NCBI RefSeq assembly: GCF_058153355.1
Contig: NZ_CM177019.1
DNA length: 64,000 bases
Reading direction: 5' to 3' (one strand)
In this document: positions 16,648 through 59,322 of the stretch, piece by piece
How positions within the stretch are numbered: the stretch's first letter is position 1
Layout: each line of letters begins with the position of its first letter
Program-made: the position numbers and the translations under genes
Notes under the pieces: model-generated
Seen by the model: the letters and a program-made list of their open reading frames with translations, nothing else
Database searches by the model: none
What the model was told of the DNA's origin: nothing

Positions 16648-17401
16648 GTTGTCACCCTGGACCTGGTCGTACATTTAAGAAATTAAATCATTTCAACTTG
16701 GTTGTTAACGCAACCTGTATTTTGTTAACGCCGCGTTACGATGGAAAGTATGTCTGCGGAAATATTTTTAATAACTCACCCGCGCGTTGTATTTTTCTTT
16801 TTTTGTTCATACCAAAGTATTAAAACCCACGTAAATACGCTGTTATCTACGCAAAAAAAATATTTTGTTTTCTTTCAAATTTCGGTTTTCCGCAATCAAA
16901 AATCACCAGACAGTCATTCTTCTTGCCCGTCGCTGATTGCTGCGATATGTATTGCGCACAAGCCGTGACAAACCTCGTCTTTTTGCAGTAAAAAATTGTC
17001 CACGGAGGTGTGGAGAAAAAACAAGAACGTTTTACATGACGAAAGGACTACACCGAAATATTTTTATATGCATTATTAGCAAGTTAGCACCATTTGTATG
17101 ATTTTTTAAAATTGTGCAAGAAAAACCAAATGTACAACTTTTCTATCATTTCTAAACTTAATAAAACCTTCAGATTAACATTTTAATATAACGAGTTACA
17201 TTTAGTTACATGTTTAACACTTGATTTAAGATTTGTAATGGCTAGATTGAAATCAGATGTAATCCATTAGTTTTATATTTTACCCATTTAGGGCTGATTT
17301 ATTACTACACACAGCAGTGCAACATCTGTCAGTACTTCTGGTGCTTCTATTTTAGAGGCAGCTGTCAGGTGTGCGATCAATAAAAAAAGCGGGGTTTCAT
17401 C
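16648..17401. promoter_or_regulatory. csgBAC / csgDEFG divergent intergenic control region (about 750 bp, AT-rich)
   Basis: long AT-rich spacer between divergent csgB and csgD; position corresponds to the well-studied curli regulatory region; individual binding sites not mapped here. Confidence 0.75.
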
Positions 17402-22752: not shown

Positions 22753-22946
22753 TTATCGTTATGATCTACAAAGGCCACCAGCATAACAAATCCGTGGTCG
22801 GTGGCAAAAAAAGCAGATTTCGCTTATTAAAACTGCATATTGATTGAAGTTTGAATAAACGCGCGATTTTTTTAAAAAGTTTGTTGACCTCAGGTCATGA
22901 TTTCCCTAAATTAGCGCCCGTTCCAGCAAGACAGGAACGACAATTT

Positions 22947-23034
22947 GGTGAGGTGTCCGAGTGGCTGAAGGAGCACGCCTGGAAAGTGTGTATACGGCAA
23001 CGTATCGGGGGTTCGAATCCCCCCCTCACCGCCA
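22947..23034 (+). tRNA. serX: tRNA-Ser (anticodon GGA), 88 nt with long variable arm
   Basis: ggtgaggtgtccgagtggctgaaggagcacgcctGGAaa...gggggttcgaatcccccctcaccgcca; cloverleaf by eye, CCA-encoded 3' end. Confidence 0.9.
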
Positions 23035-23480
23035 TCTTTAAAGAAGAGCTCGTACGAAAGTACGGGCTTTTTTTTTCGTATATTGCACACACCGGGGGGA
23101 TGAGAAGCCCCGACAGGGGTTCGACAACTGGCGACAGCCAGTTGGACAGACCGTGAACGCAGTGAGCGGGCTGCCCGCAGGGCGAGCGAAGCGAGTCAAT
23201 CCCCCCCTCACCGCCATCTTTAAAGAAGAGCTCGTACGAAGGTACGGGCTTTTTTTTCGTATATTGCACACACCGGGGGATGAAAAGCCCCGACCGGGGT
23301 TCGACAACTGGCGACAGCCAGTTGGACAGACCGTGAACGCAGTGAGCGGGCTGCCCGCAGGGCGAGCGAAGCGAGTCAATCCCCCCCTCACCGCCATCTT
23401 TAAAGAAGAGCTCGTACGAAGGTACGGGCTTTTTTTTCGTATATTGCACACACCGGGGATGAAAAGCCCTGACCGGGGTA
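23016..23480 (+). repeat. tandem direct repeat array, about 2.6 copies of a ~180-bp unit, each unit beginning with a 19-nt copy of the serX 3' end and a hairpin+T-run
   Basis: aatccccccctcaccgcca recurs at 23016, 23198, 23378; following ~160 bp nearly identical between copies, with internal 8-bp stem caactggc/gccagttg. Confidence 0.85.
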
Positions 23481-23485
23481 CTTAG

Positions 23486-24172
23486 TTAATGCAACGGTTC
23501 ACCCTTTGTCGCCGCGGCTAATGGGCGAATTTTGTCACGGGTATCCCAGACCGGAGGGATTTCATCCAATTTAGTGACAGAAGCTCGTACAAAAGGCACC
23601 CGTGCAATAGTCATAATCGTATTCAACCAACGGTCACGAATAATGCGATCTGCCCTTTCATGACTCGGATCATCCAGCTCAATAACACAGACTATTTTAT
23701 TGTTCTTCTTTGAAACCAGAACATAATCCATTGCCATTCCATTATAAATTGCAAAGAAACGCTTTCTTTCTTCTTCGCTAAACTCGGGTTGTTCTGGAAA
23801 GTTGATCAAGCGCCCCAGAGAGACCTGGCAATGGATATGGCAATAATGTCCAAACCATTTCTCCAGATTATCGAAATAGATTTTCTCACAACGCGTAATT
23901 AACCACTCTTTTCCTTCCAATAAAATGCCTTCGGCAACCATTCCCTGAAATAACTCATCTCGTTCTTGCCAACGAGAATCACGATAGGTTTTCTGCGGTG
24001 TATAGCTCCTTGTCGACGCCTTAACAGCAGGGGAAGTTGCAGATGAAGGGACTGGTTGCAATTTAGTGATGATTACCGATGAGGCAACTTTTCGGAGTGT
24101 CAATTTTCTGGCAACAGCAAAACCGGCGACAAATGCAATTGTCAAACAAGTTACAAAAACCATAAAGCTCAT
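23486..24172 (-). CDS. orphan membrane-anchored protein with putative DUF2726 / PD-(D/E)xK nuclease-like C-terminal domain (228 aa)
   Basis: ORF 23486..24172 with AGGTGA Shine-Dalgarno; N-terminal TM helix; C-terminal motif AMDYVLV...KIVCVIELDDPSHE resembles the D..(D/E)LD..H signature I associate with DUF2726; not a gene I recall at this K-12 position. Confidence 0.55.
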   Translation of the reverse strand: MSFMVFVTCLTIAFVAGFAVARKLTLRKVASSVIITKLQPVPSSATSPAVKASTRSYTPQKTYRDSRWQERDELFQGMVAEGILLEGKEWLITRCEKIYFDNLEKWFGHYCHIHCQVSLGRLINFPEQPEFSEEERKRFFAIYNGMAMDYVLVSKKNNKIVCVIELDDPSHERADRIIRDRWLNTIMTIARVPFVRASVTKLDEIPPVWDTRDKIRPLAAATKGEPLH

Positions 24173-24721
24173 AATTAATCTTCACCTATCCATGTTGATT
24201 ATATTTCATTACTAACGCTACTCGCTGTAGCGAGTTACATGCCAACAATTCAACGATCCATATATAGTTAGTATCATGTTTTGATTATTACAACCATACC
24301 TATTTTGCCATTGCGGCTTGCCGTCCACAAAAAATAACAACACAAAATATTAGCCAAAGAATTAATTAAGATTAACCTGACATTTTTAATGTTATCCCTA
24401 AAAAATATAATCAGGGGAATGTATTCGGTGTTAATCAATCAGCCAAATTATGGTCCATTATTGATGGAACCTCATACGCAAAATTGGCACCAGACCTCCT
24501 GTACAGGTTGAATGGCTGAAAAAAGATAAGCAGATGCTCGCTTTTTGGGCTTCTGGAAGAAAAACTCTCCGCACTGGCGGTATTACACTGGTCTGGTGCT
24601 ATGACGACAAATGCCCGGTAAGAGTATCTAAACCTGAATTCATTTCAGCTTATCAACACGCTCAAAGTCGCCCCCTGAACGTTAACCTGAAGTGAAAATC
24701 TTTGCTGTTAATGAAATAAAA

Positions 24722-24745
24722 CAAAGCCCGGTTCGCCCGGGCTCT
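24722..24745 (-). terminator. hairpin downstream of phoH (putative terminator)
   Basis: agcccggttcgcccgggct inverted repeat just 3' of the phoH stop. Confidence 0.5.
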
Positions 24746-24760
24746 GCGCCGATAATACAC

Positions 24761-25684
24761 TTAACTGTATGCATGTAGCGTACGTTGGCAAAGTGCTGAA
24801 CGTACGCAATCCTCTTTACCGAATCGGACGATCCCGACCATTTCATCTTCTTCGAAACGTTCCAGCGCGTCACTTAATCCGGAGCGCACGCCGCGAGGTA
24901 AATCGCATTGCGTGATATCACCGTTGACAATAACCGTCACGTTCTCCCCGAGGCGGGTTAAAAACATTTTCATTTGCGCGGCAGTCACATTCTGCGCCTC
25001 GTCAAGAATGACGACTGCATTTTCAAAGGTACGTCCACGCATATAGGCGAACGGCGCAATTTCCACCTTCCCTATTTCCGGTCGCAGGCAGTACTGCATA
25101 AAGGAAGCCCCTAAGCGACGGACCAGCACGTCGTAGACCGGGCGAAAATAGGGAGCAAACTTTTCTGCGATATCACCAGGTAAGAAACCAAGATCTTCAT
25201 CGGCTTGCAGAACTGGACGGGTGACGATAATCCTGTCGACATCCTTATGTATCAGGGCCTCTGCCGCTTTTGCGGCACTGATCCAGGTTTTTCCGCACCC
25301 GGCTTCGCCGGTGGCGAATATCAGCTGCTTACTCTCAATAGCCTTCAGATAGTGCAATTGCGCTTCATTTCGCGCGAGGATGGGCGAGGTATCGCGACTG
25401 TCGCGGGCCATACCAATGGCTTCTACGCCGCTCATCTGCACAAGCGAGGTGACCGATTCTTCTTCACGCTGCTTATGGCTGCGCGAATCCCGTCTCAGCA
25501 CACGTTTTGCCTCGCGACGAGCTTTGATCACTGCTTTTTGTCTTCCCATGGAGAGCACCTTGAGTTGTTTGTATTCATCACACGCGCCGTTGGCAGCGCG
25601 ATTATGCGCACGAACATCAGAGGGTTGGCTTCCTTGTAAGCCATAGTTTGCTTTTGGATAAAATGCCGAAAAACGGCTACGCAC
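24761..25684 (-). CDS. phoH: PhoH, phosphate-starvation-inducible ATPase (307-aa ATG ORF; true N-terminus uncertain, see findings)
   Basis: ORF 24761..25684; Walker A GEAGCGKT and PhoH-family core; synteny next to efeB. Confidence 0.8.
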   Translation of the reverse strand: MRSRFSAFYPKANYGLQGSQPSDVRAHNRAANGACDEYKQLKVLSMGRQKAVIKARREAKRVLRRDSRSHKQREEESVTSLVQMSGVEAIGMARDSRDTSPILARNEAQLHYLKAIESKQLIFATGEAGCGKTWISAAKAAEALIHKDVDRIIVTRPVLQADEDLGFLPGDIAEKFAPYFRPVYDVLVRRLGASFMQYCLRPEIGKVEIAPFAYMRGRTFENAVVILDEAQNVTAAQMKMFLTRLGENVTVIVNGDITQCDLPRGVRSGLSDALERFEEDEMVGIVRFGKEDCVRSALCQRTLHAYS

Positions 25685-26014
25685 ACCGTTTGCGGCGTCG
25701 GTAACACGAGTAAAGAGAGGAAGTGAGAAAAATACAGAGTGACGAAGTTGCTACCGGAGGAGAAATCTCCGCGAGTGGTGGAGCCTTGCTTAACAAAACA
25801 TTGTCCAGAACAGGACGTTACCATCCGCGATCTCCATAGTGACTGACTATCACTGCCGGGAACTTCCGCTGCTACTTAATAAGTACAACAGATCTCGCAT
25901 TCATTGCAACAATATATTCACTTATATTTAACCATAAAACACCATTTCAGTGACATTAGTTTCTACTGGAAAGATGACAGAGTGATGACAGTGATGAAAA
26001 AAGCTGTGTGCTTT

Positions 26015-26180
26015 CAGCAGGATTCGCATCAGGCATCAACGCACGAACGCCGGATGCGGCGTGAACGCCTTATCCTGCCTACCGAACCCGCACCGATTGT
26101 AGGCATGATAAGACGCGCAAACGTCGCATCAGGCATCAGCGCACGAACGCCGGATGCGGCGTAAATGCCTTATCCGCCTC
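26015..26180. repeat. REP/BIME cluster (three or more REP units) between phoH and efeB
   Basis: repeated gccggatgcggcgtgaacgccttatcc and inverted copies. Confidence 0.7.
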
Positions 26181-26186
26181 TAAAAA

Positions 26187-27458
26187 TTAAACTCGCAATA
26201 ATGCGCTTCCAAGATAATCGTTCGCGTCCTTCACCCCCGGCAGCGCAAAAAAATAACCGCCGCCGATGGGTTTAACGTATTCCTCCAGCGCTTCACCATT
26301 GAGCCTTTTTTGTACTGTCAGGAAGCCCTTTTCCAGATCGTGTTGGTAGCAGACAAACAGCAACCCCATATCCAGTTGCCCGGAGTTGGTAACACCCAAC
26401 GAATAACTGTAGCCACGACGCAGCATCAGACTGGACTCGCTCTCCGTCGTGCGGGGATTCGCCAGCCGGATATGGCTGTCCAGCGCGATCACCTTCCCTT
26501 CCGGATCACTGGCGTAATCGGGAACATCATGCTCATGCTGCATTCCCAGCGGCGCACCGGTTTGCTTATCGCGACCAAAAATTGTCTGCTGTTCTTTCAG
26601 CGGCGTTCTGTCCCAAAATTCCACTCGAAACTGAATCAAACGCACCGCCTGGTAGCTGCCGCCGATAGCCCACGCAGGCTCCTGCTGATCTGCCGTCACC
26701 CACACTACTTTTTGCATCACTTTCGCATTTTGGCTGTCAGGATTAGCAGTGCCGTCTTTGAAACCCAGCAAATTAATCGGCGTCTCTTTGCCTTTACTAC
26801 GCGCTGCGTGATCGGAAATAAACCCTTCCCGCTTCCAGCGCACACTGAGCAAATCCGGCGTATGTTTGATGATATCGCGCAGCGCATGGATCACCGTGTC
26901 CTGGGTGTTGGCGCAAATTTGTAGCAACACATCACCATGACATAACGCCGCATCCAGCGAGTCGTTGGGGAAACGCGTCATCTTCTGCAACTTTTTCGGC
27001 ATCTGTGGCGCAAGACCAAACCGTTCATCAAACAACGAGTGACCAACTGACAACGTGATGGTGAGATTGTCGGGCGCAATGTAGCCGCCAAGAATGCCGG
27101 AATCGCGTGGTGGCAGGCGCGGATTTGGCGTTTCTGGTGCTGCTCCGCCCTGAGTCAGAAAAGCAAAACGCTGAGTCAACAAGCGAAACAATCGCTCAAG
27201 ATCAGCTTTATCGCTGGCAAGCACATCAAACGCCACCAGCATCATTGTCGCCTGCTGCGGCGTCAGAATACCCGCCTGATGTTCGCCATAAAACGGCTGC
27301 GCTTCACTGCGCGCATCCGGTGAAAGCGTCCCCGGCGCACTTAGTGGTTTTTGCGCATGCGCTACCGGGCAACTTCCCGCCAGTGCCAGCGCGCCAATCC
27401 CTTTCAGTAAACGTCGGCGTGACGGTTCATTCACGCCGTTTTCATCTTCATACTGCAT
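26187..27458 (-). CDS. efeB: Dyp-type haem peroxidase EfeB with Tat signal (423 aa)
   Basis: ORF 26187..27458; twin-arginine motif [13 protein letters not shown]; synteny. Confidence 0.9.
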
Positions 27459-42054: not shown

Positions 42055-42165
42055 TTCATGCCGGATGCGGCGTGAACGCCTTATCCGGCCTATAAAACAG
42101 TGCAAATTCAATATATTGCAATCTTCTGGTAGGCCTGATAAGCATCGCGCATCAGGCAAGCTTAC
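42055..42165. repeat. REP/BIME element between rutG and ymdF
   Basis: gccggatgcggcgtgaacgccttatccggcctac plus inverted gtaggcctgataagc... Confidence 0.7.
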
Positions 42166-58651: not shown

Positions 58652-58824
58652 GGTCAGTGCGTATTTGCAGCGCGACGTTATCAAAGGTGATCATCGTCGA
58701 TTTACAAAAAATACACTTTGCCCCTAAAGGATTTCGCTCCGTCACATCGAATGCCGATGTGCGGTACTGTGAACCATGACAACATGGACAGCGGAAATGG
58801 AGATGTTGAGTAATAACGGCAACC

Positions 58825-59037
58825 TTAGAGCGTAACAACGTTCGCTGCCGCGGGACCACGTTGCCCCTGCTCAATAGAAAATTCAACTTTCTGATTTTCG
58901 TTCAGCGTGCGGAATTCATTGCTCTGGATGGCGGTGAAATGGACGAAAACGTCTTTGCTGCCATCATCAGGAGTGATAAAGCCAAAACCTTTATCTGCGT
59001 TAAACCATTTTACTAAACCAGTCATTTTATTAGACAT
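58825..59037 (-). CDS. cspG: cold-shock protein CspG (70 aa)
   Basis: ORF 58825..59037; CSD with [15 protein letters not shown] motif. Confidence 0.9.
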
Positions 59038-59322
59038 ATTTTACTTCCTTCATTTTGGGCCTTTCGGCAAACAGGGCTTTAATACAGAAACTACTTAGTG
59101 TTCAGGAGAGAGACTCAAAAGAAGGGGATAATGCCTGATAATGAGAACTGCTTTAGTAAACTACTTTGTATGCTGTCTGTCTTTCAAACCGACGCAGCTA
59201 TTAACGCATGATAATTGAGATTAAGCAATTTTTATTTTAGCCGTCCGGCGGTCTTAAATATCGCTGGCTTTATTTTATTAACCCCGTATAGTGCAGCGCA
59301 GTATTTTCAGTAAGGAATTTGT

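Follow-up and report, generated by a model that had tools for sequence, protein, structure and literature searches.

What is a DNA array that repeats the 3' end of a tRNA gene: the residue of past integrations, or a repeat family with a character of its own? The question arises at serX, the tRNA-Ser(GGA) gene at 22947-23034 (+) of the window, by which we mean the whole 64,000-nucleotide stretch of DNA analysed here. It is the sole tRNA gene that ARAGORN finds in the window (Rfam tRNA score, 53.8 bits), and a consensus scan places a predicted σ70-like promoter, TTGACC-17-TAAATT, ahead of it at 22884-22912 (+). A sequence-only reading had noticed that the serX 3' end is reiterated in near-identical units of about 180 bp, and had proposed that these are the scar of serial integration and excision or, failing that, a satellite-like structured array. 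The reiteration was borne out by ARAGORN, Tandem Repeats Finder and a repeat finder. Tandem Repeats Finder reports a single array at 23016-23479, with a period of 180, 2.6 copies, 97% matches and a score of 875. The array begins inside the tRNA gene: the last 19 nt of serX (23016-23034) are copy 1 of the reiterated tRNA 3' end.

A 60-nt block made up of AATCCCCCCCTCACCGCCA, the trailer, a hairpin and a T-run occurs at 23016, 23198 and 23378 with 98-100% identity, and the repeat finder pairs two 180-nt units, 23095-23274 and 23275-23454, that are 99% identical. A 60-nt block present three times, exactly or nearly so, together with a 180-nt unit present twice, is far beyond chance. On the plus strand, the tRNA is followed directly by a trailer hairpin with U9 that folding identifies as an intrinsic terminator (23040-23076); its core stem, GCTCGTAC-GAAA-GTACGGGC, lies at 23048-23067 and its T-run at 23068-23076. 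The body of unit 1 (23080-23216) comes next and is closed by copy 2 of the tRNA 3' end (23198-23216). The same order is repeated in unit 2, with a terminator hairpin at 23222-23257 (core 23230-23249, T8 23250-23257) and a body at 23259-23396 that is closed by copy 3 (23378-23396). A partial unit 3 (23397-23479) on the same strand holds the trailer, the terminator (core 23410-23429, T8 23430-23437), the 5' module and half of hairpin P1, and ends ...GACCGGGGT.

The array is neighboured by ghrA, ycdX, ycdY and ycdZ on one side and by a DUF2726 gene, phoH and efeB on the other. The DUF2726 gene is convergent, encodes 228 aa and lies outside the array at 23486-24172 (-). It had been called an orphan, a description that does not hold: its product carries a Pfam DUF2726 domain (E 2.8e-18), and other E. 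coli genomes have the gene annotated in the corresponding position. It had also been said that the third repeat copy is truncated exactly where this gene ends. That is approximately right, but the array stops at 23479, 6 nt short of the stop codon at 23486-23488. The DUF2726 protein had no match in PADLOC or NCBIfam. With this gene begins the strain-variable serX-phoH interval.

Kinship with the RtT RNAs

The array is very probably a serX-linked member of the RtT repeat family (Rfam RF00391), kin to the ~178-bp rtT RNA (rttR) repeats behind tyrT/tyrV. The traits of that family are present: same-strand units of ~175-183 bp stand in tandem directly 3' of a tRNA, and each is closed by the CCA-inclusive last ~19 nt of that tRNA. 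In a permissive Rfam scan, unit 1 (23080-23216) matched RF00391 with 41.7 bits (E 4.3e-6; model positions 1-130 of 130) and unit 2 (23259-23396) with 39.9 bits (E 1.2e-5; full length), both just below the gathering score of 45 bits. Elsewhere, serX units score 46.3 bits in K-12 MG1655 and 51.4 in E2855, and the four tyrT-tyrV units score 133-137 bits; the units of the window and of K-12 diverge by 2-3%. The serX units thus form a divergent subfamily, scoring at the margin of a model that was built from tyrT-type sequences.

As an object, the serX array is already known: it belongs to a catalogued family and is annotated in many E. coli, including K-12. PGAP labels serX units "RtT sRNA" in MC4100, C122, LR-50 and E2855, with one to three labels per locus. 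The genome closest to the window, R32_14_1F (98.8% identity), has the window's layout without RtT annotation, which is consistent with sub-threshold scores. Because serX-type units straddle the Rfam threshold, identical loci receive from 0 to 3 "RtT sRNA" features by a few substitutions. An RtT subfamily model would mend this uneven annotation.

Aligned with the K-12 tyrT units (alignment A1), the serX units are homologous all the way between the 5' G-run and the terminal CCA; the post-tRNA trailers are unrelated. The bodies have in common GGATGAGAA, CGAC, GGTTCGA, a CCC-GNA-GGG hairpin and GAGT-AAT (alignments A1 and A2). The RtT repeats at tyrT-tyrV (rttR, tpr) likewise stand in tandem behind a same-strand tRNA and end in its last 19 nt including the CCA, and the closing helix and P1 hairpin described below are found in both kinds of unit. 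The two kinds differ in their partner tRNA, which at serX is Ser(GGA) and not Tyr, every tRNA-matching segment being swapped to fit; in their scores against the Rfam model (40-51 bits at serX versus 133-137 at tyrT); in P2 and P3, which are longer in serX units; and in their trailers, which carry a strong intrinsic terminator in the serX type and are unstructured in the tyrT type (median ΔG -22 versus -1.9 kcal/mol). An RNA product has been reported for a tyrT unit, whereas the serX units are known here from sequence alone.

Egan & Landy (1978) and Rossi et al. (1981) reportedly described a 178-bp repeat beginning with the final 19 bp of tRNA-Tyr. According to PMC3318445, rttR is one repeated unit of the tyrT operon; the same paper cites Bosl & Kersten (1991) for a stable tyrT rtT RNA that is processed out of the tRNA operon transcript. 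That 1991 study, as PMC7542023 and PMC3318445 relate, proposed that the tyrT copy modulates the response to amino-acid starvation, and this link is the sole function suggested for rttR in PMC7542023 and bioRxiv 10.1101/2024.07.17.603846. In Klebsiella RNA-seq, several RtT RNAs were detected and differentially expressed (PMC4147364). The full-text literature searched for RtT, serX, the tyrT repeats and ycdU mentions rttR/RtT in passing only; it contains neither the serX array nor expression data for serX units. One paper on NaF names serX merely as a tRNA precursor.

The serX trailer forms a 16-bp hairpin with a GAAA loop followed by U9, in RNA letters GCUCGUAC-GAAA-GUACGGGC-U9 (ΔG -20.4 kcal/mol, z -5.4, 0/200 shuffles as good). 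The stem contains a U-G pair and is thus expected to function on plus-strand RNA only. A like hairpin and U-run is present in 35 of 40 distinct tRNA-Ser trailers of other genera, where changes in the stem are compensatory, and is missing from tRNA-Tyr trailers. The output of the promoter scan lacked plus-strand terminators, so folding was used to identify them, and the scan predicted no promoter inside the units. Only serX-promoter transcripts that run on past the terminators would cover the bodies. With a strong conserved terminator before every body, such transcription may be rare. Since the units end exactly like the tRNA and are followed by the same trailer, each could be freed by the tRNA 3'-end maturation machinery.

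The unit bodies fold in a strand-specific manner. For unit 1, the plus strand gives ΔG -60.2 (z -3.7) and the minus strand z -0.7; for unit 2, ΔG is -56.3 (z -2.6). The predicted fold has a closing helix, GGGGGGAU (23094-23101) with AUCCCCCC (23199-23206), which reads GGGGGGAT and ATCCCCCC in the DNA, three hairpins and a single-stranded CUCACCGCCA tail. In unit 1 the hairpins are P1 at 23104-23122, P2 at 23125-23144 and P3, which includes 23166-23178. Two inverted repeats that the sequence-only reading had picked out are located here, CAACTGGC/GCCAGTTG at 23125-23144 and GCGGG-CTG-CCCGC at 23166-23178.

RNAalifold was run on 48 non-redundant units, drawn from the Tyr, Ser, Arg and Marinobacterium Tyr contexts. 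Its consensus contains the closing helix, P1 (GAA-b with c-UUC), P2 and the CCC-GNA-GGG hairpin. Over the 18 pairs of these units, 97.4% of cells are paired, versus 88.6% when shuffled (0/500 as high), and slid controls are 36-65% paired. Compensatory changes are found in 8 of the 18 pairs; most of the covariation comes from the Tyr/Ser split and a few non-enterobacterial cases and thus reflects few independent events. Examples of Asp and Phe units pair weakly. The fallback of the sequence-only reading, a satellite-like structured array, proved the apt one of its two proposals: the array is of the RtT repeat family, with a strand-specific fold and covariation.

Variation among strains and species

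In 3,225 of 5,426 complete E. coli genomes, a megablast search with 22940-23500 of the window matched 80% or more of this query at a single place. The number of full units after serX varies. There are none in EDL933 and RS571, one in LR-50, two in the window, R32_14_1F, E2855 and E. albertii, three in MG1655 (followed by a partial unit) and in C122, and four in the MC4100 record. With partial units counted, copy number ranges from 0.4 to 4.4 among strains. E. albertii has the 2.6-unit layout of the window together with its truncation point and DUF2726 flank; the point at which unit 3 is truncated and the flank that follows are identical in the window, R32_14_1F, E2855 and E. albertii.

Arrays also stand behind tRNA-Ser(GGA) in Citrobacter, Enterobacter, Pluralibacter, Kosakonia, Salmonella arizonae and others. 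A species scan with one genome per species found at least 120 loci; it used a fixed pattern, GATGARAA plus GGTTCRA, and is biased for that reason. Among the matches listed, the motif lies 59-69 nt past tRNA-Tyr(GTA) or tRNA-Ser(GGA) in 1-5 tandem copies in many Enterobacteriaceae, follows tRNA-Tyr and tRNA-Ser in non-enterobacterial Gammaproteobacteria too, and is also found behind tRNA-Arg(CCG), tRNA-Asp and tRNA-Phe. About 25 of the matches listed are chance occurrences, in unrelated phyla and with no tRNA.

Units within one array are 96.7-100% identical, versus 92-94.5% between E. coli and E. albertii. Between these two species there is no positional orthology, unit 1 being no nearer to unit 1 than to unit 2. 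The excess of identity within arrays over that between species points to concerted evolution, through unequal exchange or conversion. Strain SCPM-O-B-8794 carries a mini-unit of 106 bp in which an unbroken T arm and 3' end come after the 5' module (GGGGGGATGAGAAGCCCCGACCGGGGTTCGAATCCCCCCCTCACCGCCA), the product expected of an exchange between the unit's internal GGGGTTCGA and the T arm of the tRNA. We propose that unequal homologous recombination or slippage expands, contracts and homogenises the array, and that the units, the tRNA T arm and the tRNA 3' end would serve as partners. A repeat that varies from 0 to 4 full units, differs between two K-12 records and sits beside an integration hotspot could be misread as att scars or misassembled.

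Units and the tRNAs they follow

Each unit of ~180 bp consists of a trailer with a strong terminator, a structured body and the exact last 19 nt of the tRNA including the CCA. The body opens with ~21 nt that copy the cognate tRNA's T arm in antisense, with two fixed loop changes. These 21 nt share a median of 17 identities with the antisense of the T arm and three acceptor nt of the cognate tRNA; the sense strand gives 11 of 21 and non-cognate tRNAs give 12.8. The 5' half of this antisense module is predicted to pair with the unit's tRNA-like 3' end (the T-stem 3' strand and 2-3 acceptor nt) and the 3' half with the T-stem 5' strand and TTC, of which the unit holds an internal sense copy. Two more hairpins and an unpaired ...CUCACCGCCA tail complete the predicted four-way junction. 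The unit can be read as (i) an antisense T arm, (ii) a sense T-stem 5' strand with half the T loop, (iii) an insert of ~80 nt that holds P2 and P3 and (iv) what remains of the T arm, together with the acceptor 3' strand and CCA.

The segments that vary between units are precisely those that match the adjacent tRNA. In the complete units of the scan, the 3' end repeats 19 nt of the cognate tRNA, and the match is exact behind Thiohalobacter tRNA-Arg(CCG), Kangiella tRNA-Asp and Marinobacterium tRNA-Tyr. In three enterobacterial lineages the unit's 3' end tracks an acceptor-stem variant of tRNA-Tyr. At a minimum, tRNAs for Tyr, Ser and Arg are followed by cognate-specific units; the cases for Asp and Phe are weaker. 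In tRNA numbering, the antisense strand covers positions 5-7 and then 49-53, stretches that are non-contiguous in the gene, so that gene conversion from the tRNA cannot maintain it. Because this strand tracks the tRNA and yet is not convertible, we infer selection for the RNA helix. We found no description of this cognate-tRNA architecture in the searchable literature.

Alternative explanations and possible roles

On the integration reading, the tRNA 3'-end copies are att cores and the DNA between them is what remains of the elements. As an intuition about the locus this was reasonable, because other strains do use the serX 3' end as an attB. In E2855, an island of ~83 kb with the tyrosine integrase WP_000279869.1, flanked by CCCCCTCACCGCCA, lies between serX and the array: the intact tRNA passes at once into island DNA (attL), the island ends ~83 kb on, beside the integrase, at ...CAGGCGGT/CCCCCTCACCGCCA, and the chromosome resumes with the trailer and an intact 2.6-unit array. 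The EDL933 record shows the same island end, the 14-mer CCCCCTCACCGCCA is present in every unit, and the strain-variable serX-phoH interval adjoins the array. In these two records the island is seen only at the tRNA's own 3'-end copy. Like the array, such attL/attR pairs left by tRNA-targeting tyrosine integrases place a tRNA 3'-end copy downstream of an intact tRNA at the same locus, but the EHEC serX island has a duplication of 14 nt that occurs once and brackets 83 kb and an integrase, whereas the array repeats 19 nt with ~160 nt head to tail and is gene-less. The genuine att duplication is thus 14 nt and not 19 nt plus trailer. Nor does the DNA between the copies look like assorted remnants: it is a single homologous unit of ~160 bp without genes, 97-100% identical from copy to copy and with homologues in the tyrT units, and in the window's layout there is no integrase near the array. 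Where the array meets heterologous flanks, the junctions fall at four positions, all inside unit bodies and none at a tRNA-end copy: ...CACCGGGT/GCCCCC in the ycdU or dgcT layouts, ...GACCGGGGT/ACTTAG in the DUF2726 layout, ...CTGGCGACAG/ACTCATT in RS571 and a fourth distal junction in strain E69. BLAST of one unit against 50,697 phage records gave no match, in a search for which the bare 14-19-nt core is too short to be detected. Against plasmids the unit matched 40 records, mostly of 0.16-4.9 Mb and of the PLSDB class non-mobilizable, which we take, from their size and class, to be chromosomal DNA filed as plasmid. The presence of the array at serX in K-12, which the sequence-only reading had itself named as evidence against a scar, is what we find in MG1655 and MC4100, and the array is likewise present in E. 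albertii and many other genera. Finally, the 5' strand of the unit covaries with the tRNA, which integration scars would not yield. We consider serial integration and excision a highly improbable origin of the array.

Two further readings take the units for remnants or parts of genes. That the units are pseudogenes of a duplicated serX that keep only the 3' end would fit the tRNA segments that each contains (a sense T-stem 5' strand with half the T loop, the full T-stem 3' strand, the acceptor 3' strand and CCA), and tyrT and tyrV are indeed a true tandem tRNA pair with an RtT unit in between. Yet there is no remnant of a D arm, anticodon arm or variable arm, ARAGORN finds one tRNA only, and the 5' module is antisense to the T arm, not sense. 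Moreover, the bodies at the Tyr and Ser loci are homologous outside the tRNA-derived segments (the CCC-GNA-GGG hairpin, GAGT before the 3' end), an outcome that independent decay of two different tRNA genes would not produce; decayed tandem tRNA-Ser genes are a very unlikely source. Even less credence is due to a protein-coding repeat, whether as the 110-aa ORF at 23153-23485 (+), as long minus-strand ORFs or as a tpr-like peptide from the conserved ATGAGAA. ORFs do traverse the array on both strands, the annotated tpr ("protamine-like protein") of the tyrT unit begins at the same conserved ATG, and one genome has a "hypothetical protein" call at the array. Against this, unit lengths of 178, 180, 181, 182 and 183 bp across strains and units mean that no frame is conserved through the array, and the ORF from ATGAGAA has 18 aa at serX versus 29 aa in tyrT and reads much longer in Citrobacter by manual translation. 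PGAP calls no protein gene at the array in the closest genome or in K-12, and the pattern of conservation is that of paired RNA helices. A neutral satellite, in which functionless RtT units are kept by unequal recombination and by gene conversion with the adjacent tRNA gene, has more in its favour and is still unlikely in our judgement. Healthy strains carry from 0 to 4 full units, the array is wholly lost in the RS571 and EDL933 lineages, in E2855 it lies 83 kb away from serX, a terminator stands ahead of each unit body, and no RtT has an established function according to PMC7542023. What this reading does not account for is the antisense strand of the closing helix (tRNA 5-7 plus 49-53), which is not convertible and tracks the cognate tRNA in the Tyr, Ser, Arg and Marinobacterium Tyr contexts. 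Compensatory changes in P1, P2 and the terminator stem, the strand-specific folding of the units and the differential expression of RtT RNAs in Klebsiella noted above also speak against it.

We return to the array as a member of the RtT family. 3'ETS RNAs such as 3'ETS-leuZ are encoded in the trailer of a tRNA transcript and freed by tRNA processing, and RtT units resemble them in their trailer location and in the release proposed for them. 3'ETS-leuZ is a single unstructured sRNA sponge, whereas RtT units are tandem and structured and reiterate the tRNA end. The tRNA-like domain of tmRNA and viral tRNA-like structures offer a second likeness, since on the modelled fold RtT units would also present a T-stem 3' strand and acceptor helix followed by NCCA. 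Enterobacterial RtT units differ from these minihelix mimics in forming 2-3 acceptor base pairs only, with a tail of 9-10 nt unpaired, and in having a four-way junction where the mimics have a T loop.

Tentatively, and going by comparison of sequences, RtT units may be a general gammaproteobacterial class of tRNA-trailer RNA module, assembled from the preceding tRNA, evolving along with it and selected to read or mimic that specific tRNA; this is one possibility, which we hold with less than even confidence. A unit of this kind could act in cis or in trans as a regulator or decoy of cognate tRNA maturation, or alternatively as a decoy for factors that target the acceptor/T domain of the cognate tRNA. 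The copy in the window is not special in this respect: it is for the RtT family as a whole that covariation with the cognate tRNA and the antisense T-arm layout give a testable hypothesis of function.

The serX locus and its neighborhood in other strains

In E. coli E2855, the 3' end of serX is the site of an ~83-kb island that carries a tyrosine integrase (loci L006, 4638-6000, and L130, 6800-7060; L numbers denote the sequences from other genomes that we compared with the window) and is accompanied by a 14-nt duplication, CCCCCTCACCGCCA. The island splits serX from its RtT array, which is intact and adjoins the integrase end.

Gene content between the serX array and phoH also differs among strains (window 23486-27458; loci L001, L002, L003, L128 and L129). 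A DUF2726 gene is the sole content of this interval in the window, R32_14_1F, E2855 and E. albertii. The K-12 and C122 interval holds ycdU and a truncated ACP S-malonyltransferase gene, and IS3 and dgcT were also seen there in K-12. In LR-50 and RS571, dgcT directly follows the array, with pgaA next in RS571.

Several other Rfam matches lie in the window. The annotated antisense sRNA Ysr251 gave a strong match (24766-24959, plus strand; 182.9 bits) that overlaps the stretch occupied by phoH, a minus-strand gene, and is also present in E2855 (L006, 7735-7928). Also above the gathering score were the cspA thermoregulator (58771-59193, minus strand), the sRNA ES056 (17255-17346, plus strand), naRNA4 (CssrE) in the efeB/phoH intergenic region (26102-26179, minus strand) and ES036 (CssrF; 42094-42136, plus strand).

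Unit number and a mini-unit

Full serX RtT units number four in the MC4100 record versus three in MG1655, both K-12 (L001, 4076-4900, versus L005, 1417-2153, minus strand). There are two possibilities for this gap: either an identical unit was recently duplicated, or the assemblies differ. In E. coli SCPM-O-B-8794, we observed a 106-bp mini-unit lacking the P2/P3 insert (L038, 7730-7850, minus strand), in which an unbroken T arm and tRNA 3' end come after the antisense module. This mini-unit appears to have arisen when a unit underwent exchange with the T arm of the tRNA.

Features kept across RtT and RtT-like units

Ser-type and Tyr-type units alike keep a short motif that sits after the trailer and before the 5' G-run (window 23082-23093, with equivalents in other units and genera); it reads TATATTGCAC in the former and ATATTCTGCCC in the latter. 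The motif is similar to a -10 hexamer; a scan found no -35 element to go with it.

Outside the Enterobacteriaceae, RtT-like units lie behind tRNA-Arg(CCG) in a Thiohalobacter MAG (L089), tRNA-Asp in a Kangiella MAG (L112), tRNA-Phe in a Halieaceae MAG (L023) and a divergent tRNA-Tyr in Marinobacterium (L080 and L099). In every case, the 5' strand and the 3' end of the unit match its own tRNA.
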